64,000 nt of DNA, taken from Candidatus Parcubacteria bacterium. Lineage in GTDB: Bacteria; Patescibacteriota; Minisyncoccia; Phycocordibacterales; Phycocordibacteraceae. The DNA is taken from contig JAXDML010000009.1 of assembly GCA_034666125.1 (NCBI GenBank), positions 975 to 64,974 of the forward strand, read 5' to 3'. This document shows positions 1 through 43,665 of the stretch, in pieces (the first letter of the stretch is position 1; the number at the start of each line of letters is the position of its first letter). Below the pieces are notes generated by a model that searched no databases, had not been told where the DNA came from, and was given only the letters and a program-made list of their open reading frames with translations. Both the position numbers and the translations under genes were made by a program.

Positions 1-590
1 CCTGTCCTTGAGACTGTCCTTGAGTCCTCCGCGCATCTGTTGCTTTCGCTTTCGGCAGAACTTCCCGTCGCATGATCGGAGAAACAGGAGCCGGGACCTG
101 CCCGAGTACCGGCCTTCCCGTCTGCGCATGCATGTCCCTCGCGAGCGTGGCGAGGCTCGGCATCTCATCAAGGAGCAGGTGCGGCTCTTCGTAGCTCGCG
201 ACCTCTTGGAGGAGGCTGTGCGCTTCGCGTGCGATGAGATCCGCATTCATGGTGGACAGGATTCCTCCGCTTCGCGCGATTCCGAGGATGCTCGACAGCG
301 TGAGAAGCTCCCGAGAAAGCTCGTCCCGGCTGTCGGGCGGCGGGAGGATGGCCGCATCGATGAGTCCGATAGCGACGTCTTCGAGACGCTCGCGGAGCGC
401 GGGCGCGTTCGAGAACGCGGGCGCGATGAGGTGGATGGCCTTCGCGAGCCTCTCAGCCTTCTTATAGAGGTATACACGACGGATGTCCTTATCGAAGATG
501 TTGGAGAATATGCTCTTGTCTAGGACAAGGTCGCCCAATTCCCCGCTTCCGCGGTTAGTCCTGAGTTCCCTGTTCTGTCCTTTATCCTGC
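1..590 (-). CDS. Hypothetical protein, 5' portion only (ATG at about 588-590); the ORF runs off the window start with no stop
   Basis: Manual reverse-strand translation gives about 196 codons with no stop and normal amino-acid composition (MQDKGQNRELRTNRGSGELGDLVLDKSIFSNIFDKDIRRVYLYKKAERLAKAIHLIAP...). The + strand ORF 8..523 is Arg-rich and antisense-like. No family recognised. Confidence 0.3.
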
Positions 591-800
591 ATAGTTTCTT
601 TAAGGGACACTATACGCCCCTCGTCCTATTTAGCAACGTCTTAGACAGATCCTCACATGTCGCATGAGTGCGGAGCGAACGGGACATGCCGTTTCGGCCG
701 ACTTGAGGGAGGCCAAGGGAAACCGCATGGGAACCGTGAGTGAGCAACGAAGGCGAGCATGTGAGGGTCTGTCGCCGGCAGGTGCTAAAATGTCTTTGTA

Positions 801-2981
801 ATGGCTAAGAAGAAGGGGCGGAAAGCGCGGGACGCCGACAACTACAAAGCGGTCATGAAATGGACCGCCGCTATTCTTTGTATAGCGCTCGGTCTCCTCC
901 TCGCCCTCGGGGCCGCGGGTCAGGCTTTCGGCCTCATGCTTGCCGGCGACATCGGGAATATGATCTTCCTCTCCGCATGGGGTGGGTTCGGCGTCGGTGC
1001 CCTCGCCCTGCCCTTCCTCGCCATCCTGGTCGGCGTCGGGATCCTCAAGAACGACGTCTTCGTGGGGCCGTTCACGGCGATCGGCATCGCGCTCATCGCC
1101 CTTTCCCTCCTTACGCTCTTCGGAGTACTGACGGACGCGTTCGGAGGAGCGTTCGGACGCTTTCTCGGCGCGGAAGCCGTGCGGCTCTTCGGCTTCGGCG
1201 GCGCGTTCGTCATTCTTCTTGCTCTTGTGTTGGTCGGACTTGGTATCGTGACCGATATCGTCGCGCTCTGGCAGAGGCTCATGGAGATGGGGAGCGGTGC
1301 ACGCGACCGGCTCGGGAACGTGCGCATCTCCTTCCCGTCCGGCAGCAAGGAGGCTGAGGACGACGAGGAAGTGCCCGAAGAGGAGTACATAGAGGAAGAG
1401 CCCGTTGCCCCGGACGAGGAGGTACCCGATGCCGACCCGATCGTAACGATCTTCAACGAGAACGAGACGACTTCCGCGAAGGCCGTTCCCGCTATCCCGA
1501 ACTTCGACGCGGAGTACAAGCCCCCTCCCCTGGCGCTCCTCGGAGCCGATAAAGGGAAGCCTGGCGTCGGCGACATCAAGGCGAACGCGAATATCATCAA
1601 GCGGACCTTCCAGAACTTCGGCATCTCCGTGGAGATGGACGAGGTGTCAGTCGGCCCGACCGTAACCAGATACGCCATCAAGCCCGCAGAGGGCGTGCGC
1701 CTCTCCAAGATCATCAGCCTGCAGAACAACCTCGAGCTCGCGCTCGCCGCGCATCCGGTGCGTATCGAGGCACCCATTCCCGGCAAATCCCTCGTCGGCA
1801 TCGAGGTGCCGAACGCATCCAAGGCCATGGTCGGTCTCGGCGGCATCCTTTCGGCTCCCGAATGGAACTCGAGCAATAAGCCGATACTGGCGGGACTCGG
1901 ACGCGACATCACCGGCACTCCGCACTACGTGAACATCGCGAAGATGCCGCACGGCCTCATCGCGGGCGCGACCGGCAGCGGTAAATCGGTCGCCATCCAT
2001 GCGATCATCACTTCCCTGCTGTATCGGAGCGGCCCGAACGCGCTCAGATTCATCATGATCGACCCGAAGCGCGTGGAGCTGACTATGTATAACGGTATCC
2101 CGCACCTCCTGACACCGGTCATCACGGACCCCAGGAAGGCCATCCTGGCCCTCAAATGGGCGGCAAAGGAGATGGACCGCCGGTACAACATCCTCGAGGC
2201 CGAGAAGAGCCGCGACATAGATACATATCATAAGAACGTCTTCGAGCCCGCGAAGAAGAAAGGCCAAAAGGAACTTCCCGAAGCCATGCCGTACATCGCC
2301 ATCGTCATCGACGAGCTCGCCGACATCATGCAGACATACCCGCGCGAGCTCGAAGCCTGCATCGTCAGGCTCGCCCAGATGTCGCGCGCCGTGGGCATCC
2401 ACCTGATCCTCTCCACCCAGCGCCCGTCGGTGAACGTCATTACGGGGCTTATTAAGGCGAACGTGCCGACGCGCATGGCGCTTCAGGTGGCGAGCCAGAT
2501 TGACTCGCGCACCATCCTCGACGGTGCGGGCGCGGAATCCCTGCTGGGCGCCGGCGACATGCTCTACCTCGCTAGCGACATGCAGAAGCCCGTGCGCATA
2601 CAGACCGCCTACATCGCCGAAGCCGAAGTACGCAAGATCGTCGATTTCATAAAGAGGAACAACGCCGGAAGCCTCGGCGCGCTCGACCTCGGCAACGCGA
2701 ACGGCGGCATGCCTGCCGAACCGAACGAGGCCATCATGCTCGCGATGGAGGACGACTCGGACGATGACCTCTACCCCGACGCGAAGGCGGCAGTAGAGGA
2801 AGCCGGACGCGCCTCCACGTCGTACCTGCAGCGTAAGCTCCGCATCGGCTACTCGCGCGCCGCACGTCTTATGGATATCCTTGAGGAGAAGGGCGTCATC
2901 GGTCCGGCTGACGGCTCGCGTCCCCGCGATGTGCTTTCGTCCTCGGGTACTGCGCGCTCGGATGAAGAGGAGGTATTCTAG
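801..2981 (+). CDS. ftsK: DNA translocase FtsK/SpoIIIE
   Basis: N-terminal multi-TM region, acidic/Pro linker, motor domain with Walker A (GATGSGKSV), Walker B (IVIDELAD) and C-terminal winged-helix gamma domain (YLQRKLRIGYSRAARLMDILEEKGVIG). Confidence 0.9.
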   Translation: MAKKKGRKARDADNYKAVMKWTAAILCIALGLLLALGAAGQAFGLMLAGDIGNMIFLSAWGGFGVGALALPFLAILVGVGILKNDVFVGPFTAIGIALIALSLLTLFGVLTDAFGGAFGRFLGAEAVRLFGFGGAFVILLALVLVGLGIVTDIVALWQRLMEMGSGARDRLGNVRISFPSGSKEAEDDEEVPEEEYIEEEPVAPDEEVPDADPIVTIFNENETTSAKAVPAIPNFDAEYKPPPLALLGADKGKPGVGDIKANANIIKRTFQNFGISVEMDEVSVGPTVTRYAIKPAEGVRLSKIISLQNNLELALAAHPVRIEAPIPGKSLVGIEVPNASKAMVGLGGILSAPEWNSSNKPILAGLGRDITGTPHYVNIAKMPHGLIAGATGSGKSVAIHAIITSLLYRSGPNALRFIMIDPKRVELTMYNGIPHLLTPVITDPRKAILALKWAAKEMDRRYNILEAEKSRDIDTYHKNVFEPAKKKGQKELPEAMPYIAIVIDELADIMQTYPRELEACIVRLAQMSRAVGIHLILSTQRPSVNVITGLIKANVPTRMALQVASQIDSRTILDGAGAESLLGAGDMLYLASDMQKPVRIQTAYIAEAEVRKIVDFIKRNNAGSLGALDLGNANGGMPAEPNEAIMLAMEDDSDDDLYPDAKAAVEEAGRASTSYLQRKLRIGYSRAARLMDILEEKGVIGPADGSRPRDVLSSSGTARSDEEEVF

Positions 2982-3020
2982 GACTTTTCAAGCCACTCGT
3001 AACGTTTAAGTCAGTGACGG

Positions 3021-3043
3021 CCGTCTGGGACGACGTTGGAATC
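3021..3043. repeat. Copy 1 of conserved 25-bp site (CCGTCTGGGACGACGTTGGAATC), immediately 3' of the stop of the 3045..3509 gene
   Basis: Direct sequence comparison with copies at 3531, 4135, 4798 and 42263; the core CTGGGACGAYGTTGGAA is shared by copies 1, 3 and 4, with one substitution each in copies 2 (CTTTGG) and 5 (GACAAT). Confidence 0.6.
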
Positions 3044-3044
3044 T

Positions 3045-3509
3045 TTATGCCTTGTAGACTGGCAATACTGTAGACCCCTCAGGAATAACGTACTGGTCCG
3101 AAAATTCCTCAATAAAGGCCAGCTCCTTTTCTACACGCTTTGGCCGGCTTCGATTATGAATATTTCGGACACATGACGCACGGTCGTTTTCAAAGAATCT
3201 GAATTCGACTTCTGTAGTCGCGTTTAGTTTTGAGAGCAGTCGTCCCATCCCTTCCTGAGCCTCTCTCAGACGAGCCGGATCGCAGAAAAGTATATCCGCA
3301 ATAACGATATCCCTCCCTTCTTGCAAGGCAGCTTGTATATCCTCAAAGTATGCGCTTCCCTCAAACTCTAAAGACTTGCGCGGCCCAGTGGTCGCAGATT
3401 TATAGAAATCGTCGCATATAAGAGCATTGCCGAATTCCTTTTGGTGCGTTTCAAGATAGGTAGTCTTTCCTGACCCCGGTAAACCGGTAATAAAGAGTAT
3501 CTTGGGCAT
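3045..3509 (-). CDS. Small P-loop NTPase, kinase-like (154 aa)
   Basis: Walker A GLPGSGKTT at the N-terminus. Local GC is noticeably lower than the flanking genes. Confidence 0.55.
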   Translation of the reverse strand: MPKILFITGLPGSGKTTYLETHQKEFGNALICDDFYKSATTGPRKSLEFEGSAYFEDIQAALQEGRDIVIADILFCDPARLREAQEGMGRLLSKLNATTEVEFRFFENDRASCVRNIHNRSRPKRVEKELAFIEEFSDQYVIPEGSTVLPVYKA

Positions 3510-3518
3510 GCGTTCAGT

Positions 3519-4112
3519 CTACTCTACGAACTGGCCGCCTGGGACGACTTTGGAACCCTGGTCTGCAAATAAATAACTAAAGGCTTGTTCGCGCGGCTTC
3601 TCAAAGTCATGAGAGATATCGAAATATTGAATCCCGTACTTTCCGCATTCTGCTTCTAAGTACTTACTGAACTGGATCATTTCCTCAATTAGCTTCAGCA
3701 TTTCCTCGTCAGAATGGCCCTTCGTCCAATCAACTTGCCCTTGGTGATGAACTCTCACCAGAGCGAGCTTCTCTTCCTTGTTTAGTGCTGCATACCCGAT
3801 AAAACAACTTCTAATCTGATGACCTTCAAGCATTAGTTCACTTACTTGGCTTGGCAGGATCGAATCACCCTCAATGAGGAAGTCGCGCTCCTCGTGGAAG
3901 AAGAACCCCAGAAGAGGTTTCGCCACAGGCCACATCCGTTCAGCCCGTTCAATGAAGGGCTGGTCGTAGGCAATACCGAGTTGCGGCGTTCCATTGGCTA
4001 AACCGCCAAATAAAGCATCGAGTGGGAAATAAGGAACTCCCTTTTCAGAAACTGCTCTACGGGCAAGCAGCGTTTTCCCCGAACGCGAGGCCCCACCGAG
4101 TATATGGATCAT
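3519..4112 (-). CDS. Small P-loop NTPase, kinase-like (197 aa), a paralogous type
   Basis: Walker A GGASRSGKT. Low-GC. The repeat site overlaps its last codons. Confidence 0.55.
   Translation of the reverse strand: MIHILGGASRSGKTLLARRAVSEKGVPYFPLDALFGGLANGTPQLGIAYDQPFIERAERMWPVAKPLLGFFFHEERDFLIEGDSILPSQVSELMLEGHQIRSCFIGYAALNKEEKLALVRVHHQGQVDWTKGHSDEEMLKLIEEMIQFSKYLEAECGKYGIQYFDISHDFEKPREQAFSYLFADQGSKVVPGGQFVE
3531..3557. repeat. Copy 2 of the conserved site (CTGGCCGCCTGGGACGACTTTGGAACC)
   Basis: Sequence identity to the other copies; overlaps the 3' end of CDS 3519..4112. Confidence 0.55.
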
Positions 4113-4134
4113 GGAGAAAGTATACCTTCTGCGT

Positions 4135-4160
4135 CTGACTGCCTGGGACGATGTTGGAAA
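4135..4160. repeat. Copy 3 of the conserved site (CTGACTGCCTGGGACGATGTTGGAAA), lying between the divergent starts of CDS 3519..4112 and CDS 4225..4779
   Basis: Sequence identity to the other copies. Confidence 0.55.
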
Positions 4161-4224
4161 TTTTTATTGTGTAAATCGAGATTCTCAGTATAATCCAGAA
4201 GGACATTAGCGAAAGGAGGCCCGC

Positions 4225-4779
4225 ATGTCTGAGGGATATCTCTCATGGAGACGGGCCGCCTTTTGGCCACGTTACGAATCGGGGAAGGACAAAGGAATTG
4301 CCAGGGACGCAAGTCTCGTTTTCTTTGCAATCCTCACAATTTCATGTCTGTTCCGAGCAGTGTGGGGAGGACACCGGACCAACCTTCTCTGGCCACCCCT
4401 GGTTTACGCCGCATTCGGCGCGCTCTGGTGGATGGTTCTCATGGGTACGCGATGGTGGGGAAGATTCACTGCGCGACATCCGAAGGTCGCAAAGACGATC
4501 GACATCATCACCTTGATAACCGCGTGGGAGATTCGCCTGTTCATGGCGAGCGGCGGAGTGTCAAAGTGGCTTAAGAGATGGTGGTGGTGCCTTATGGGAA
4601 TATATTTGCTCGGACTTTATGGCTGGCAAGGTGAATTGCTCAGTCGGACGTACGGCATCGCCCTAATAATTACCGCCGAGGTCCTAAGCGAACTGACGGG
4701 CCTCTACCTCGCCTGGCAGGTTTGGAAGAGGCCCAAGGGTCCAGTCGAGCAAAGTGCGACCGAGCCGCCCCGGAATTAG
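4225..4779 (+). CDS. Trp-rich integral membrane protein (184 aa, about 4 TM)
   Basis: Strong SD (AAAGGAGG) 6 nt upstream of the ATG; hydrophobic helices. Low-GC. Confidence 0.55.
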   Translation: MSEGYLSWRRAAFWPRYESGKDKGIARDASLVFFAILTISCLFRAVWGGHRTNLLWPPLVYAAFGALWWMVLMGTRWWGRFTARHPKVAKTIDIITLITAWEIRLFMASGGVSKWLKRWWWCLMGIYLLGLYGWQGELLSRTYGIALIITAEVLSELTGLYLAWQVWKRPKGPVEQSATEPPRN

Positions 4780-4797
4780 GGCGGCATTTCTTTATTG

Positions 4798-4825
4798 CTG
4801 GCAGTCTGGGACGATGTTGGAACGC
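4798..4825. repeat. Copy 4 of the conserved site (CTGGCAGTCTGGGACGATGTTGGAACGC), 19 nt after the stop of CDS 4225..4779
   Basis: About 30-nt near-identity with copy 5 at 42263. Confidence 0.6.
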
Positions 4826-4896
4826 TGCTTCATAAACTCGTCACGCAAGCTCATCTATACTTTTCAGGTGCGCAGAACTAAAAACAACTAGCTAGT

Positions 4897-5154
4897 ATGT
4901 CTACTATCGTAAATAATCCAAACGGAGACAACGGTAACAGCTCGGCAGGATGGATTGTTGCCATTGTGGCAATTGTCATTCTTCTTCTGCTTGCCTTCTT
5001 CGTTTTCGGCGGCGACGCTGACGACGCACGTGATGCGGTACAGGATGTCCCTCAGAAGGTAGAAAACCGCGTCCAGAACGTCGATGTCCCTACCCCAATG
5101 AACAACACATTCAACAGCACCACCACGGTGAACTCCACCACAACCAATCCTTAA
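4897..5154 (+). CDS. Small membrane protein (85 aa), N/T-rich tail
   Basis: One TM helix (WIVAIVAIVILLLLAFFVF), followed by a terminator hairpin. The overlapping antisense ORF 4888..5193 is less plausible. Confidence 0.4.
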   Translation: MSTIVNNPNGDNGNSSAGWIVAIVAIVILLLLAFFVFGGDADDARDAVQDVPQKVENRVQNVDVPTPMNNTFNSTTTVNSTTTNP

Positions 5155-5168
5155 GCTGATCTGAGTGC

Positions 5169-5205
5169 AATGTCCCCGAACCGTCGGGGACATTTGCTTA
5201 TTAAT
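5169..5205 (+). terminator. Rho-independent terminator-like hairpin (AATGTCCCCGA..TCGGGGACATT) followed by a T-rich run
   Basis: Perfect 11-bp inverted repeat followed by TGCTTATTAATATCTT. Confidence 0.4.
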
Positions 5206-5284
5206 ATCTTGGCGTACTGAGTTTCGAACTAATTCGTGGGACGTAAATATACAGTTTTTCAGTAAATCGTTATAATTCCTTCAT

Positions 5285-5605
5285 ATGTTCATCCGCTATT
5301 CGGCCGGTATCATACTCCTCCTGGTCCTCGGATACGGCTCCGTGAAGGCCTGGCCGCTCCTTCGGGGCCCGGAAATACGCCTTGAAACGGAAGTCACCGG
5401 GTCCGCGCTGGGAGTCATCACCCTCTCCGGGCGCGCCCTCCATACCGAGACCCTGCTCCTGAACGGCGGCATCCTGCTTATCGACGGCGAAGGGCGCTTC
5501 GAGAAGACCCTGACGCTCCCGCCCGGGGGCGCTATACTGTCTTTAACGGCGACGGATCGCTTCGGCAGGAGCGTCTATGAGCGACGTGAGGTGTTCGTTC
5601 CTTAG
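5285..5605 (+). CDS. Hypothetical exported/membrane-anchored protein (106 aa)
   Basis: N-terminal hydrophobic segment (IILLLVLGYGSVKA). Precedes recA. Confidence 0.45.
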   Translation: MFIRYSAGIILLLVLGYGSVKAWPLLRGPEIRLETEVTGSALGVITLSGRALHTETLLLNGGILLIDGEGRFEKTLTLPPGGAILSLTATDRFGRSVYERREVFVP

Positions 5606-5634
5606 TAAGTCTTATTCATTAGTTTGATTTTCAT

Positions 5635-6699
5635 ATGCCAGTAAAAAAAGCAGCAAAGAAGCCATCGAAGCCGGTCGCTACGACCGCCGAGGTCAAGGAG
5701 CTCTCGGGAGACGCGGAGGGCAAGCGGCGCTCCATCGACCTCGCGATCAAGGACATCAAGACCAAGTTCGGTGACGAGGCCATCATGACATACGGCTCCG
5801 GCAAGGTGGCCGCGATGCCGTTCATCCAGACCGGCTCCATCGGGCTCGATAGCGCGCTCGGTATCGGGGGACTTCCCCGCGGACGTATCGTCGAGATCTT
5901 CGGCCCGGAGTCGTCAGGTAAGACGACGCTCGCGCTGCACGTCATCGCCGAAGCGCAGAAGACGGGCGGCGTGTGCGCGTTCGTCGACGCAGAGCACGCG
6001 CTCGACCCGCAGTACGCCAGGAAGATCGGGGTGAAGCTGGAGGAGCTGCTCATCTCGCAGCCGGACACCGGCGAGCAGGCGCTCGAGATCGTGGAGTCCC
6101 TCGTGCGGGCGAACTCCATCGACGTCATCGTCATCGACTCGGTCGCGGCGCTCACGCCGAAGGACGAGATCGAAGGCGACATGGGCGCGCATCACGTGGG
6201 CAAGCAGGCCCGGCTCATGAGCCAGGCGCTCCGCAAGCTCACTGCCATTACTGCAAAGAGCCGCACCATCGTCATCTTCATCAACCAGATCCGCATGCAG
6301 ATCGGCGTCATGTTCGGGAACCCCGAAACGACTCCCGGCGGCAAGGCCCTCAAGTTCTATACCTCAGTGCGCCTCGATATCCGCAGGATCGCGCAGATCA
6401 AGAAGGGCGAGGAGGTCGTGGGCGGGCGTACCCGCGTGAAAGTCGTGAAGAACAAGGTGGCGGCGCCGTTCAAGACGACCGAGTTCGACCTCATGTACAA
6501 CGAGGGCATTAGCCGCGAGGGCGAGATCATCGCGCTCGGCGAGAAGTTCGACATCATCCAGAAGTCCGGGACGAGCTATAGCTATGGCGAGACGAAGCTC
6601 GGCCGCGGGTACGACGCGACGCGCACGTTCCTCCGCGAGAACAAGCCGATCGCCAACGAGCTCCTGAAGCAGATCAGGGTGAAGCTGGCGGAAGCGTAA
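5635..6699 (+). CDS. recA: Recombinase RecA
   Basis: Walker [10 protein letters not shown] and the canonical RecA core ([37 protein letters not shown]). Confidence 0.95.
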
Positions 6700-8776: not shown

Positions 8777-9445
8777 CTAACCCTTACGATCTATTTGCGC
8801 TTCGCAGGCAGCCGTTCCTCCTTTGCCGAAGAAATTAAGCCTGTAGGTCGCGCTCTGTTCCGGCTTGTGTGTCAGACTGCCCTTTGGCTTGTAGCGCTTC
8901 TTCTGGTGGATGTCGAAGCCGTGCGCATAGTCAACCGTGAGAAGCGCATAGTCCGCCGCTACGCTCGTCCACGCGAGTTTTACGGACCCATTAACCTTAT
9001 TCTTGGACTTGTCGACGGCTTTGAGCGTACAGGTCGGCTTGCCTGTATTAGGTATTTCAAGAGAACGTTTAGTTTTTTTGACCGTAACTTTGAGCGTTTC
9101 CTGGTCTGAGTATATGACCTGTCCCTGATCGATACTTCGCCCGTCCTTATATTTAAGCTGGGTGCAGTACAACATATACTTCGTTGTTTTCTGCGGAGTA
9201 AGCGTAAGCTCCCCGTATTGTCCCACGTTATCCCTCAGCAATTTCCCATCGTTATTCGTATCATCTCGCAACTGACAATTGGGTTTCCCCGAGACATTCC
9301 AGATCAGGGTAACGCTTTCGCCGGACAAGATCTCTGCAGAACTTGAGGTGAAGAGGTTAATACGTACTTTTGAAGCGGCGCCAGCGGTAGAAGGCACTAG
9401 GAAAATACACGCAAGGAGAACGACGGAAAATATGTTTCTATGCAT
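8777..9445 (-). CDS. Secreted hypothetical protein (222 aa)
   Basis: Signal peptide (MHRNIFSVVLLACIFLVPSTAGAAS). Confidence 0.5.
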   Translation of the reverse strand: MHRNIFSVVLLACIFLVPSTAGAASKVRINLFTSSSAEILSGESVTLIWNVSGKPNCQLRDDTNNDGKLLRDNVGQYGELTLTPQKTTKYMLYCTQLKYKDGRSIDQGQVIYSDQETLKVTVKKTKRSLEIPNTGKPTCTLKAVDKSKNKVNGSVKLAWTSVAADYALLTVDYAHGFDIHQKKRYKPKGSLTHKPEQSATYRLNFFGKGGTAACEAQIDRKG

Positions 9446-9448
9446 GCC

Positions 9449-9835
9449 TCAAACTTTAGCATTTTCTGGAGATTTGGCAAGGCGGCTCCCGAGCCGTAAA
9501 GCGATATACAGCAGTACGCCGTAAAAGACGAAGCCAAATATTCCGAGAAGAACCGCGCCGCGCAGGGAAAGCTCTTGCACCATACCGGGGAAGGCCAGTA
9601 CCAGGCCACCTGCCAGAGAGATAAAGTAGATACCTATAACTTTGGCGCATTCTAACCTCGCTATCTTTTCTCGCTTGATAGACGAATGGATCAACCCGAG
9701 AGCCACCGCAAATACTAGAGGAATAATGAGGGTGGCAAAGCCGACTGGCACGAACTTATGAGAGATGCCGCTTAGTACAACCAACAGGAGCCCGAGGGTG
9801 TAGCCGCTTACCACTATCCTTTTAAGGATGTTCAT
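9449..9835 (-). CDS. Small integral membrane protein (about 4 TM)
   Basis: Hydrophobic profile. Confidence 0.5.
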   Translation of the reverse strand: MNILKRIVVSGYTLGLLLVVLSGISHKFVPVGFATLIIPLVFAVALGLIHSSIKREKIARLECAKVIGIYFISLAGGLVLAFPGMVQELSLRGAVLLGIFGFVFYGVLLYIALRLGSRLAKSPENAKV

Positions 9836-10686: not shown

Positions 10687-11211
10687 TTATACACCCGCCT
10701 CTTTGAGCGCGGCATCGAGTTCTACCTCCGCAGCGTCGTCTTCGGAGGCAGGTTGTTCAAGAGCGGCGCGCGCGAAGAGCTCATGCATCTCGGCTGCATG
10801 CTTGGCGGCGTCCTTAGTCGTGCGGATATCGAGGTGGCGGATGATGTTCGACTGGGAGCGGACGAACTCGCCGATATCCTCGTGTCCTGCGCCGTCGGCC
10901 TCGTATGCGATCCAGCAGAAGAACGCGCTGTCGAAGTCGCGGCGCCCGGTCGTTTCCTGGCGGGAAATGGTGTAGGCAAGCGGCACTTTCGTGGGTTCGC
11001 CTTCGGCGACGACCGTCCCGATGGCCGTGATGCGGTCACGGATGCCCTGGTACGCCTTCTTTGCTTCCTCCTGGGGAAGCTCGCCATCGAGATGAAAACC
11101 GAGTTCGTAGACGCGGGTTTCCGTGAGGTCACCCTCTTCAGCGGCCTCTATGCCTTCGATCGATTCATTATTTTCTGCCTGATTTGCCATATGATTAGCC
11201 GATACTAGCAC
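10687..11211 (-). CDS. rpsF: 30S ribosomal protein S6 with acidic extensions
   Basis: S6 core (RVYELGFHL..) in the conserved rpsF-ssb-rpsR order. Confidence 0.75.
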   Translation of the reverse strand: MLVSANHMANQAENNESIEGIEAAEEGDLTETRVYELGFHLDGELPQEEAKKAYQGIRDRITAIGTVVAEGEPTKVPLAYTISRQETTGRRDFDSAFFCWIAYEADGAGHEDIGEFVRSQSNIIRHLDIRTTKDAAKHAAEMHELFARAALEQPASEDDAAEVELDAALKEAGV

Positions 11212-41275: not shown

Positions 41276-41845
41276 TTAGAGTTTCCTAATCTGCAAAAAG
41301 TCGAGCTCGACCGGGGTCTCGCGGCCGAACATGGCGACCATGACCTTCACCTTGCCGCGCTCCTCGTCAATCTCGCCGATCTTCCCCTCGAGGTCCTTGA
41401 ACGGGCCGTCCATGATGACGATCGGATCGTCCTTCACGAGGTCGATGCGGTGCTTCGGCGCCTCCTGATCCATGCGCTTCATGAGGGTCGCGACCTCGGA
41501 TTCCTCCATGGGAACCGGCGTCACTCCCGAACCCACGAAGCCCGTCACGCGCGGGGTGTTGCGCACGACGAACCACGAGTCCTCGTCCACCACCATGTTC
41601 ACGAGGATATATCCCGGATAGATCTTCTCCTCCTCGATGACGCGCTTGCCGCCCTTCACCCGGATCTTCTTCTCGGTCGGGACCACGACCTGGAAGATTT
41701 TGTGTTCCATGCCGAGCGACTCGATGCGCTGTTTGAGGTTACGTTCGACAGCGTTCTCGTATCCGGCGTACGTATGGATGGTGTACCAGCGGGGCTCCTG
41801 GCTTGCCGCTTCGTCGGAGAATTCGGGGGTGGTGCGCGTATCCAT
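41276..41845 (-). CDS. nusG: Transcription termination/antitermination factor NusG
   Basis: NGN domain ([14 protein letters not shown]) and KOW motif. Confidence 0.9.
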
Positions 41846-41847
41846 GA

Positions 41848-42030
41848 TTAAGAGATTAGGAAACCGACGCCTTTCGTGAAGAAATGATCGAGTATGGCGA
41901 TGAGCACTGCGGTTATCGCGGCGATGAGTATGATGAGCGCGAGATGCGTTAGCGACTGGCGCTTGGTCGGCCAGACGACATGCGAGAGCTCGGCGCGCAC
42001 GTTCTTGAGGTAGGTGACGAATGAAGTCAT
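41848..42030 (-). CDS. secE: Preprotein translocase subunit SecE
   Basis: 60 aa with a single TM, in the conserved position upstream of nusG. Confidence 0.7.
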   Translation of the reverse strand: MTSFVTYLKNVRAELSHVVWPTKRQSLTHLALIILIAAITAVLIAILDHFFTKGVGFLIS

Positions 42031-42262
42031 GGAATGGGATAATCAGCCCAAATTAAAAAAGACCCCCGGGCCTTCAATGAATACAGGATACTATGGCAGA
42101 TTTGGGGTGTCAATTACCGTATTTGGAACGAAGCTGGAACCTTACTTGGGGCTTATCTTATCGTGAACGTGAGCCCTCTATCTGGAGACTCTCTATACAC
42201 GCCTGCCGTTGTAGCAAATTGGTAAATGCTGGGCTTCGCGAATGGTCCCGCCGGGATGATGG

Positions 42263-42290
42263 TTGGCAGTCTGGGACAATGTTGGAACCG
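42263..42290. repeat. Copy 5 of the conserved site (TTGGCAGTCTGGGACAATGTTGGAACCG), abutting the NUDIX gene stop
   Basis: About 30-nt near-identity with copy 4. Confidence 0.6.
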
Positions 42291-42725
42291 CTACTTAACT
42301 TCCTCGGTGTAGCTAATACTATCAATATAGTTCTTCAGAAAAGTCCGGTGAAAATCAAGGGTATCTTCAGGCAATTTGTTTATGGGATAAAATTGCCATC
42401 CCTCACACTTATGCGGTTCACAATTTTTTATTTCACCTTCGTATTTTTCACACAAGACTGCAAATCCAAGGAATAAGACTCTCTCTTTTACGTAATGAAT
42501 AGAATTTACCGTAATCACGTTACCTTTCAGCATTGTAACGCCAACCTCTTCTTCAAGCTCGCGCTTAGACGCTTCTAAAATATTTTCCCCATTTTCTATT
42601 TGACCCCCAGGTAATGCGAAATAGCCCGAATGACTTGTATTAGTTCTTTTTCCTAAAAGAACTTTGTCTCCATTTAGTACAATTACTGCAACTCCTGCAT
42701 CAAGATTTGATGGATGGTTTCCCAT
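42291..42725 (-). CDS. NUDIX hydrolase
   Basis: Nudix box GGQIENGENILEASKRELEEEVG. Gene is markedly low-GC. Confidence 0.8.
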   Translation of the reverse strand: MGNHPSNLDAGVAVIVLNGDKVLLGKRTNTSHSGYFALPGGQIENGENILEASKRELEEEVGVTMLKGNVITVNSIHYVKERVLFLGFAVLCEKYEGEIKNCEPHKCEGWQFYPINKLPEDTLDFHRTFLKNYIDSISYTEEVK

Positions 42726-42768
42726 ACCCGAAGTATACCTAATCTACAGATTTACTTTGCAACTCTAG

Positions 42769-42789
42769 CTGGCAGACTACGTTTTGAAC
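42769..42789. repeat. Degenerate/truncated copy of the conserved site (CTGGCAGACTACGTTTTGAAC), upstream of the NUDIX gene
   Basis: Shares CTGGCAG..CT..ACG..TT.GAAC with the consensus; weaker. Confidence 0.3.
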
Positions 42790-42794
42790 TTTTA

Positions 42795-42840
42795 TGTGCA
42801 CGAAAGCAGAACCGTCCGAAAGGGCGGTTCTGCTTTTGCA
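42795..42840 (-). terminator. Hairpin terminator (AAAGCAGAACCGTCC gaaa GGGCGGTTCTGCTTT) downstream of the SIMPL gene
   Basis: 15-bp stem; flanking T-runs on both strands. Confidence 0.45.
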
Positions 42841-42855
42841 AACTATATAAGGCTT

Positions 42856-43665
42856 CTATTTGATCTCGTACGTGATGCTGACGTTCACGACCGATTCGTT
42901 CTGTCCTTGCGGAAGCGGGACAGCAGGGCGCGCCGCCATATCCATGGCTACCCCTCCGAAAGCTTTGTTCATGCTTTCGTACATCGGCATCGCATCGCCG
43001 TTCTCGCTGAAGGAAACAACGTCGCCGAGACGCACATGGAGCTGTTTGGCGAGGATATGAGCCTTCTCGCGCGCGACCTCGATGGCCTTGCCGCGCGCTT
43101 CCTCCATGACCTCTGAGTCGTCGTCCACCTGGAAGTCGGGCCCGGTGGTGTTCTGTACGCCTGCGGTGCCGAGCGCGGCGAGCACGCCAGCCGCCAGGTC
43201 GGTATTCCGAATCTTCACCGTTACCGTCTGGCTTACCTGGTACCCGACGATCTTCGGCGAGCCCTGCACGCACGGGAAGCCCGGACGGCATGGCTGGAGG
43301 GTCTCGTACTGCGGATTCGTCTGATACCCGGCCGCCTGCACGTCCTTGTCCTCGATGCCGAGCGCGCGGATGGCATCGAGCGCGGCGGTCGCCTTCCTGC
43401 TTGCCGCGTCCTGCGCCTCGGCTACGGTGCCCGCGGTCTCCTGCACCGTGAATACGACGTGCGCGATGGTCGGCGGGGTCTCGGCCTTACCGGTGCCGGT
43501 GACCGTGACCACGTTCGGACCGGCATACGGCGACTTGCCCATGCGGTCGAAGGCGTCGACCGTCTTCGCGAGGAGGAAGAGCGCGAGGAGAACGAGTACC
43601 GCGACGACCGCGTACCCGAGCAATTTCCCCTGGTCGTTGACGAATTTCTTCAAGGTTTCGTTCAT
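42856..43665 (-). CDS. SIMPL-domain (DUF541/YggE-like) periplasmic protein
   Basis: N-terminal TM, then the SIMPL pattern (VTVTGTGKAETPPTIAHVVFTV..). Confidence 0.65.
   Translation of the reverse strand: MNETLKKFVNDQGKLLGYAVVAVLVLLALFLLAKTVDAFDRMGKSPYAGPNVVTVTGTGKAETPPTIAHVVFTVQETAGTVAEAQDAASRKATAALDAIRALGIEDKDVQAAGYQTNPQYETLQPCRPGFPCVQGSPKIVGYQVSQTVTVKIRNTDLAAGVLAALGTAGVQNTTGPDFQVDDDSEVMEEARGKAIEVAREKAHILAKQLHVRLGDVVSFSENGDAMPMYESMNKAFGGVAMDMAARPAVPLPQGQNESVVNVSITYEIK

Follow-up and report, generated by a model that had tools for sequence, protein, structure and literature searches.

In the 64,000-nt stretch of contig JAXDML010000009.1 analysed here (the window), which comes from a Candidatus Parcubacteria genome, a NUDIX hydrolase gene lies between the SIMPL gene and secE and is framed by two different short sites, called here T (at its head) and F (at its end). 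With high confidence, this gene is a foreign single-gene cassette bounded by T and F. Its foreign composition, its presence or absence among relatives, the architecture and polarity of the sites, their link to tRNA-Gln and the turnover of cassettes between the same flanks are all directly supported by the comparisons below. I consider it moderately probable that an integron-like cassette system of Paceibacterota is at work, with a site-specific recombinase unlinked to the arrays and with the 3' end of tRNA-Gln as its natural target. The preliminary description of the window had proposed that the site delimits mobile single-gene cassettes, and this idea holds: arrays of such units occur in dozens of contigs and the occupancy of one and the same intergenic gap differs between genomes, mobility being deduced from comparison.

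An insertion at the SIMPL-secE junction

The window is a contig of about 60% GC from a genome of Paceibacterota (Patescibacteria, or candidate phyla radiation, CPR), and its closest relatives by NusG are metagenome-assembled genomes (MAGs) labelled Candidatus Paceibacterota or Parcubacteria. The gene order on the minus strand is rplK, nusG, secE (41848-42030), the NUDIX gene (42291-42725) and SIMPL/DUF541 (42856-43665). The NUDIX gene had been described as strongly AT-rich relative to its neighbours, which the figures bear out: with a GC content of 0.375 it lies far below the window mean of 0.598 (z = -5.0), no 435-nt stretch in the 64 kb has a lower one, and the GC content of its third codon positions is 0.31, as compared with 0.74-0.86 in secE, nusG and SIMPL.

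Eighty loci around nusG were fetched from contigs representing one genome per species, and SIMPL and secE are both present in 72 of them. In 54 of these 72 relatives the gap between the two genes measures 85-251 nt and holds nothing but the terminator hairpin of SIMPL and, directly next to it, the promoter of secE (TTGACA, 17 nt, TAGTAT), in agreement with the earlier claim that the NUDIX gene interrupts an otherwise conserved secE-proximal region. The comparison of orthologous secE neighbourhoods had been put forward as the check on that claim, the adverse outcome being that all relatives carry the gene at this position with the same flanks and ordinary GC; a NUDIX homologue is found in the gap in none of the 80. 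A case in point is the closest relative, L002 (94% NusG identity), where the gap is a clean 125 nt.

In 18 relatives the gap contains insertions of 0.5-3.4 kb with unrelated genes. The gap of L003 is filled by 2.95 kb comprising four other genes, one T site and at least three F sites, and its head site GGTTCGAAACCTAGTCTGCCAAC sits right after the SIMPL terminator, at the same position as the T site of the window; the gap of L048 has a T-like site and an F site. When F and T profiles built from independent site copies were run on 833 kb of relatives, matches with E < 0.1 were confined to L003 and L048, in this same gap. The NUDIX gene is missing from the relatives, and the same T and F sites recur in this gap in L003 and L048; the gene has thus been inserted into the conserved SIMPL-secE junction, where the same site system has loaded other genes in other lineages.

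Read towards secE, the insertion is arranged as SIMPL terminator, T site, leader, NUDIX gene, F site, 113-nt spacer, decayed F site and secE promoter. The first host boundary, outside the cassette, is the hairpin at 42803-42836, which has its counterpart behind the SIMPL stop codon of practically every relative. The preliminary description had correctly seen a hairpin terminator here but had placed it after the NUDIX gene; it lies upstream of that gene on the gene's own strand, and is therefore the terminator of SIMPL and not that of the cassette. Next comes the T-type head site AAGTTCAAAACGTAGTCTGCCAGCTA (42766-42791, minus strand), the best match in the window (E 0.0098) to a T profile built from the array-head sites of other loci; its core reads CTGGCAGACTACGTTTTGAAC on the plus strand (42770-42790), that is GTTCAAAACGTAGTCTGCCAG on the minus strand, and lies 44 nt upstream of the NUDIX ATG. 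The degenerate site copy that had been reported upstream of the gene is thus real, but it represents a distinct and conserved class, T, rather than a decayed F. The leader (42726-42765, minus strand) may carry a promoter of the cassette's own, as read from the sequence: a -10-like TATACT (42732-42737) stands 6 nt before the ATG and a TTGCAA 19 nt farther upstream, a spacer length because of which the consensus promoter scan missed it. In other loci, too, -10-like elements are frequent a short way past T or F sites.

At the other end of the cassette lies F copy 5 (TAGCGGTTCCAACATTGTCCCAGACTGCCAACCA, 42259-42293, minus strand; F profile E 1.3e-08), which includes the NUDIX stop codon, the TAG at 42291-42293 being 2 nt away from the 30-mer at 42259-42288. 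That 30-mer is identical in 27 of 30 positions to copy 4 (4794-4823), so both the gene's ending at this copy and the sharing of about 30 nt with copy 4 were rightly noted before. The 113-nt spacer that follows (42146-42258) holds no open reading frame (ORF), is missing from the empty gap of L002 and has no Rfam match; it is probably the remnant of an older cassette, and similar ORF-less spacers occur in L084. It is closed by a degenerate terminal F site (GTAAGGTTCCAGCTTCGTTCCAA..., 42123-42145, minus strand), the sixth-best F-profile match in the window (E 0.0096) and the only further one with E < 1, which abuts the -35 box of secE. Terminal F copies are degenerate in L085 and L174 too. The cassette had been termed solitary, which is right as to its one intact cargo gene, yet the remnant and this third, degenerate site follow it. 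The second host boundary is the secE promoter itself (TTGACA, 17 nt, TATCCT; 42085-42113, minus strand), conserved in relatives. What looked like a third site copy at 42094-42129 (TGGCAG...TTGGAAC) is really this promoter, and the resemblance is due to chance because it is kept in relatives with empty gaps. An Rfam search of 41800-43000 returned nothing relevant.

The cargo is a 144-aa, MutT/NUDT1-like protein. It matches PF00293 (NUDIX) with E 6.6e-20 and 71.9 bits (cut-off 21.1) over profile positions 4-133 of 134, and its translation contains an intact Nudix box, GQIENGENILEASKRELEEEVGV, laid out as G-QIENG-E-NILEASK-RELEEEVGV and agreeing with the pattern GX5EX7REUXEEXGU, which places it in the NUDIX superfamily. 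In both the full-length fold match and the intact box it resembles MutT/NUDT1-type hydrolases, and its nearest homologues carry the source names 8-oxo-dGTP diphosphatase or Nudix hydrolase 1. Identity to any protein outside its own strain is at most 40%. A 100%-identical copy exists only in the same strain in SRR24887408; the next-best homologue, 40% identical, adjoins tRNA genes and is not accompanied by an F site.

The F site and its arrays

The F site is about 34 nt long (aAAGGTTCCAACATCGTCCCAGACnnCCAGCAA); the logo of 112 unique copies reads AnAAAgGTTCCAACATCGTCCCAGACnSCCAGCAA and shows no conservation beyond these ~34 nt. A repeat search of the window recovered a 30-nt family of five copies (at 3013, 3527, 4131, 4794 and 42259), all on one strand; a 23-nt pattern with up to 3 mismatches hit exactly the same five, with 0 expected from 100 shuffles. 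The F profile added the sixth, degenerate copy, and all six in the 64 kb are on one strand and at two variable regions.

The site has no dyad symmetry, and no conserved partner arm is present within +/-45 nt in the 112-site logo. Compared with shuffles, the window copies fold with z of +0.5 to +1.0, apart from copy 4 (z -0.9), whose fold takes in a neighbouring terminator hairpin. An attC-like hairpin was accordingly rejected: lacking a dyad and a stable fold, the F sites are not attC sites. A promoter reading, in terms of either a sigma-54 promoter or a -35 box, was likewise abandoned, for the GG/GC spacing does not fit and the distance from the F site to the nearest -10-like box varies between 0 and ~15 nt.

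A 17-mer scan of metagenome contigs gave at least 120 loci, on which all array counts rest. Among the matches listed, 57 loci have the extended site, about 25 belong to an unrelated protein-coding gene and a few are chance singletons; with the window and L003 included, the array set comprises 59 loci. These hold at least 119 profile-significant F sites, on one strand within each locus. The largest array among the matches listed is that of L090, with 8 copies in 5 kb, while L085, L136 and L152 have 5 copies each. The 85 units between consecutive sites are 499 nt long at the median (323 to 912 nt from the 10th to the 90th percentile). In 30 of the 85 the largest ORF runs in the same direction as the site and in 42 in the opposite one; the other 13 have no ORF of at least 50 aa. 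Typically, the stop codon of the previous gene falls within a few nt 5' of the site, and 3' of it there is either a -10-like box with an ATG or, in reverse complement, the terminator belonging to a convergent gene. The Pfam families of 83 cassette ORFs are diverse: NUDIX is the commonest with 5, HAD and glyoxalase follow with 2 each, and the others are single instances, many of them small enzymes and domains of unknown function (DUFs).

The lack of bias in gene orientation (30 against 42) argues against a promoter or terminator role of the site, and bears on the wider possibility that F acts in regulation or at the RNA level (as operator, terminator or processing signal), sitting on accessory genes and unrelated to mobility. 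This possibility could draw on the -10-like boxes or reverse terminators found within 10-40 nt of many sites, and on a common promoter module next to about 10 F sites. It is nonetheless very improbable, given that the orientation of the site is independent of that of the gene, that the distance to the -10 box is variable, that neither a predicted structure nor an Rfam match was obtained, and that the sites coincide with presence/absence boundaries among relatives.

The promoter module deserves a description of its own. About 10 F sites have an inverted, short F-like element (GTCTGGACAGAACCCTAGCAT...) some 22 nt upstream, namely in L131, L152, L153, L135, L124, L185, L048 (1228-1262) and L085 (~10985-11030), which forms a promoter/5'-untranslated-region module common to reverse-oriented cassettes with different genes. 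Separately, a sub-variant of F (…GTCCCAGATGGTGCAC) in L163, L181 and L182 adjoins a gene for a phospholipase D-like (PLD-like) nuclease on the margin of a defence-like island; the copy in L181 lies ~100 nt upstream of a tRNA-Leu cluster.

Turnover of content between the same flanks is best seen in L085 and L174, whose left flank, with a uracil-DNA glycosylase gene, is 85% identical and whose right flank is 97% identical. Between these common flanks L085 has a T site and six cassettes, and in L174 a T site is followed by two different cassettes, the first with a NUDIX gene of its own. In L099 the glycosylase gene has no T after it, and a T-cassette-F unit is found upstream of mnmA instead. Another informative locus is L127 (40% GC), with a 62%-identical homologue of a P-loop gene of the window's other array: F again follows directly, and the upstream leader is unconserved. 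Gene and F being kept together while the leader is not, F belongs to the gene upstream of it, in the manner of an ORF-attC unit.

An origin from phages or plasmids was considered and set aside. The specific F pattern has no match in IMG/VR viral contigs, INPHARED phages or PLSDB plasmids, and the more than 100 viral contigs matched by the 17-mer all do so through an unrelated, conserved phage protein gene. That 17-mer, TTCCAACRTYGTCCCAG, lies inside a phage/prophage gene (flanks GCGGCCGTCGAAGG...ACAACAGCCTGATCCAGGGACGCGTCTTCCATCCGC) in L202-L321 and in about 25 metagenome loci, a coincidental match that would contaminate naive searches for the site.

The head site and tRNA-Gln

In several metagenome loci the array starts immediately after a tRNA-Gln gene (3' end GGTTCGATCCCTAGTCTCCCAGC), and the T site has its counterpart in the T-loop, 3' T-stem and 3' acceptor strand of that tRNA, the last ~25 nt of its gene. 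Of 23 positions in the T site of L003, 19 are those of the tRNA-Gln 3' end. In the window, where 42766-42791 marks the SIMPL-proximal start of the array, the head mimics the T-loop and 3' acceptor strand of tRNA-Gln and is not a tRNA gene. Compared with T, F carries ~5 additional nt in its middle and four substitutions (by eye, the two agree at 21 of 25 aligned positions), and both are conserved through CCAGC and diverge directly after it.

A search for T-like sites in the 59 site-bearing loci (360 kb, among the matches listed) gave 25 matches, of which 24 precede the first F site by 100-840 nt and share its strand, one is downstream and none is on the opposite strand. Eight T sites fall inside tRNA-Gln genes called by ARAGORN; the others are stand-alone and in many cases begin with the very TAG that terminates the upstream host gene. 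The array begins at the last base of tRNA-Gln in L084, L086, L087, L111, L176, L167 and L171, among others.

Two observations concern the surroundings of these tRNA genes. A partial second copy of the tRNA-Gln 3' end is present in L084 (7879-7935) and L167 (oriented position 5345), 35-130 nt past the intact tRNA-Gln and before the first F, a classical footprint of integration. In L127, between tRNA-Gln and the F array, positions 4281-5942 encode a 552-aa fusion of an RVT_1 reverse transcriptase with a trypsin-like protease, probably a defence-type reverse transcriptase carried as cargo.

Footprints of this sort invite a passive explanation: integrase-bearing islands at tRNA-Gln, now decayed, would have left att repeats behind as scars, and the NUDIX unit would be a fossil. 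The tRNA-Gln link with the partial duplications of L084 and L167, the lack of an integrase around the arrays today and the decay of terminal F copies all speak for it. I regard it as doubtful, for the F core hardly varies in over 100 copies from genomes of 36-60% GC and differs consistently from the tRNA sequence (at the 36%-GC locus L179, the best named relatives of a flanking protein are in Patescibacteria/Paceibacterota). The regular single-gene units with their median of 499 nt, the wholly different cassette content of loci sharing a 97%-identical flank and the occurrence of arrays at many non-tRNA places are also at odds with it.

The polarity from T to F could also be that of a transposon-like element with unlike, direct ends, T serving as origin and F as termination, mobilised by a trans-acting HUH/rolling-circle or other transposase; additional F sites would then stem from read-through (one-ended) events, as in IS91/ISCR. 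Such an element would account for the single T at the head followed by several F sites in the same orientation, for stand-alone T sites that come along with the insertion to intergenic targets of various kinds, in many cases precisely at TAG, and for ends without dyad symmetry. Against these stand the Pfam assignments of the surrounding ORFs, with no HUH or other transposase near any array, the lack of subterminal hairpins at either end and, in at least 8 loci, an array start precisely at a real tRNA-Gln 3' end, as is typical of integrases. An element of this kind is therefore unlikely.

A proposed mechanism and the evidence against it

Taken together, the T-F polarity, the single orientation, the exact start at the tRNA-Gln 3' end and the turnover of content are best explained by conservative site-specific recombination. 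I infer from them the recombination chemistry, a circular intermediate, a position for the crossover and a recombinase acting in trans. The recombinase would be encoded elsewhere in the genome and have the 3' end of tRNA-Gln as its natural target; circular cassettes with one F site each would be inserted at a T site, and F-by-F or T-by-F recombination would excise or shuffle them, in the way that attI and attC are handled by the integrase of an integron. The crossover would probably lie at the CCAGC end of the sites, because T and F diverge directly after CCAGC, the tRNA is left intact and F travels with the gene upstream of it. The 5-nt difference in spacing may allow the enzyme to tell T from F, and cassettes carrying promoters and terminators of their own could function in either orientation.

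Several results weigh against the recombinase-driven cassette system just outlined. ORF clustering and Pfam searches of 150 + 10 + 83 ORFs (best 25 families per batch) revealed neither an integrase nor a resolvase or transposase among the genes of the window, within 10 kb upstream or in the ~230 ORFs around the 59 arrays; the recurrent neighbours of arrays are housekeeping genes such as dnaX, and no recombinase recurs. Without dyad symmetry, F and T are unlike the core sites of tyrosine or serine recombinases. No circular cassette contigs were found, neither an excision junction nor an empty/occupied pair differing by a single cassette was seen, and contig ends are not enriched at F sites (13 of 88 within 130 nt against 10.8 expected, 44 contigs). 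The NUDIX cassette was met in one strain only (two samples), and movement of the cassette itself was not observed. Finally, stand-alone T sites come with the insertion, the empty sites of L002 and L099 having none, which simple insertion into a pre-existing T does not explain.

Along the same line, no target motif was found in the empty SIMPL-secE gaps, though three lineages carry arrays there. The repeated use of this gap would fit a transfer via conserved flanks, as in RecA-dependent exchange after natural transformation, whether between the common 30-nt sites or between conserved neighbouring genes, the sites being maintained for another reason such as the binding of a host protein. Both recA and competence-type functions are common in the Patescibacteria group, and recA adjoins the other array of the window. 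This scenario is nevertheless improbable: some 30 nt lies at the lower limit for RecA exchange, and it leaves unexplained the T-then-F polarity, the mimicry of tRNA-Gln and the maintenance of a GC-rich 34-mer in genomes of 36% GC.

Relation to known systems

Among known systems, integrons and clusters of attC sites lacking integron-integrases (CALINs) offer the closest parallel to the recombination system favoured here. They share with the arrays single-gene cassettes each ending in one site, one orientation of the sites, a distinct head site (attI being the counterpart of T), small cargo of diverse or unassigned function and turnover of content between related genomes; as arrays, too, the two are comparable, with at least 119 F sites in 59 loci on one strand each and a T head in 24 of 25 cases. 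The differences are equally marked. An attC is a 55-140-nt imperfect-inverted-repeat hairpin, F a conserved non-palindrome of ~34 nt. IntI, which in integrons is adjacent to the primary site though not required for a CALIN, is not among the families examined. Integron cassettes are mostly promoterless, co-oriented and driven by the integron's promoter Pc, whereas here 30 are co-oriented and 42 reversed, apparently with their own promoters and terminators. Lastly, the head site of the present arrays imitates a tRNA 3' end.

Elements that target tRNA genes are the second point of reference, in particular the tycheposon islands of Prochlorococcus, which show tandem accretion (bioRxiv 10.1101/2020.12.28.424599). 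Tycheposons and streptococcal cis-mobilizable elements likewise integrate at a specific tRNA 3' end and include cargo-only units without an integrase, and in tycheposon-type accretion, too, repeats related to part of a tRNA separate the insertions while newer ones push the older outward. Integration at the 3' end leaving the tRNA intact is seen in the tRNA-Gln loci. Tycheposon-type elements are 3-15 kb long with integration and replication modules, as opposed to single-gene units of ~0.5 kb; their repeats are copies of the tRNA, whereas F is a fixed derivative with an insertion of ~5 nt; and, unlike them, the arrays are found as well at many places other than tRNA genes, where a mimic of the tRNA end precedes them. 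An element-encoded integrase, a hallmark of such elements, was not found around the arrays. The arrays are thus not integrons by the tests that define these and, as found, are without the integrase of tRNA-targeting elements.

Other systems share single traits. The dif modules of Acinetobacter plasmids and IMEX elements use sites of ~28 nt and a Xer recombinase that the module does not encode; here as there, small gene modules are bounded by short sites and the recombinase would be encoded outside the module. The dif-like sites, however, consist of two inverted 11-nt arms and alternate in orientation, while F sites have no dyad, are all direct and gave no PLSDB match. IS91/ISCR elements have unlike, non-inverted ends and a large HUH transposase, and one-ended events nest their units; insertion at tRNA 3' ends is not habitual for them. 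The distinct, direct, non-inverted ends seen here would be compatible with IS91/ISCR or IS200/IS605, and no transposase was seen near the arrays. Miniature inverted-repeat transposable elements (MITEs) and repetitive extragenic palindromic (REP) sequences have terminal inverted repeats or palindromic units and occur in both orientations, unlike the 6 dyad-free copies on one strand of 64 kb.

The literature searched yielded no paper with the site sequence; judging from titles and abstracts, none of the papers retrieved on cassettes, integrons and genomic islands in Patescibacteria/CPR describes such arrays, and a paper on horizontal transfer in Patescibacteria from aquifer genomes makes no mention of integrons, tRNA or cassettes. 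The system is widespread in the ultra-small Patescibacteria and apparently undescribed. A more far-reaching claim, which I hold with as much doubt as trust, is that it constitutes a gene-capture system not described before, with the tRNA-Gln 3' end or a portable 25-nt mimic of it as primary site, a non-palindromic cassette site of 34 nt and an unlinked, possibly new, recombinase.

Patescibacteria have tiny genomes, few recognised mobile elements and much strain-level variation in gene content. If the claim is true, a cassette system would explain part of this variation, and the searchable 34-nt signature would make accessory genes directly mappable across thousands of MAGs. Such a system would further imply a recombinase/site pair for short asymmetric sites, of possible biotechnological use, and would be a second, independently built solution to the integron problem, with a bearing on how gene capture evolves from tRNA-targeting integrases.

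Array A and other features of the window

The other variable region of the window, array A (2985-5280), is located between ftsK and recA and consists of four small genes of lower GC separated by F copies 1-4, all on the minus strand; the products are an AAA_33 kinase-like protein, a 197-aa P-loop protein, a 184-aa membrane protein and an 85-aa protein. Copy 1 (3013-3042, E 4e-08) forms the distal end of the array, 31 nt after the ftsK stop; copy 2 (3527-3556) overlies the C-terminal end of the P-loop gene (197 aa, 3519-4112); copy 3 (4131-4160) was recovered by the repeat, pattern and profile searches alike; and copy 4 (4794-4823, E 5e-10) is a perfect match to the consensus. The one orientation of F is kept whether the adjacent gene of the window lies on the plus or the minus strand. 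At the predicted head position, TTAGTTCGAAACTCAGTACGCCAA (5209-5232, minus strand) agrees with ~18 of 25 T-consensus positions by eye and gives a weak, partial T-profile match (E 7); with low confidence, it is probably a degenerate T-type head of array A.

An independently assembled contig of the same strain in SRR24887408 (L327) corresponds to positions 1-4823 of the window and ends exactly at the last base of F copy 4. A third patch of low GC (8777-9835; 0.49-0.50), between efp and rpsR, comprises two minus-strand genes, for a 222-aa Ig-like and a 128-aa membrane protein, and has neither an F nor a T site.

The 5' leader of secE-nusG-rplK (42031-42084, minus strand), which runs from the promoter to the start codon of secE, contains a hairpin at 42058-42075 followed by a T-run (GAAGGCCCGGGGGTCTTTTTTAATTTGG). 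This hairpin is conserved in nearly all of the ~70 relatives and has no Rfam match; being terminator-like, it could act as an attenuator.

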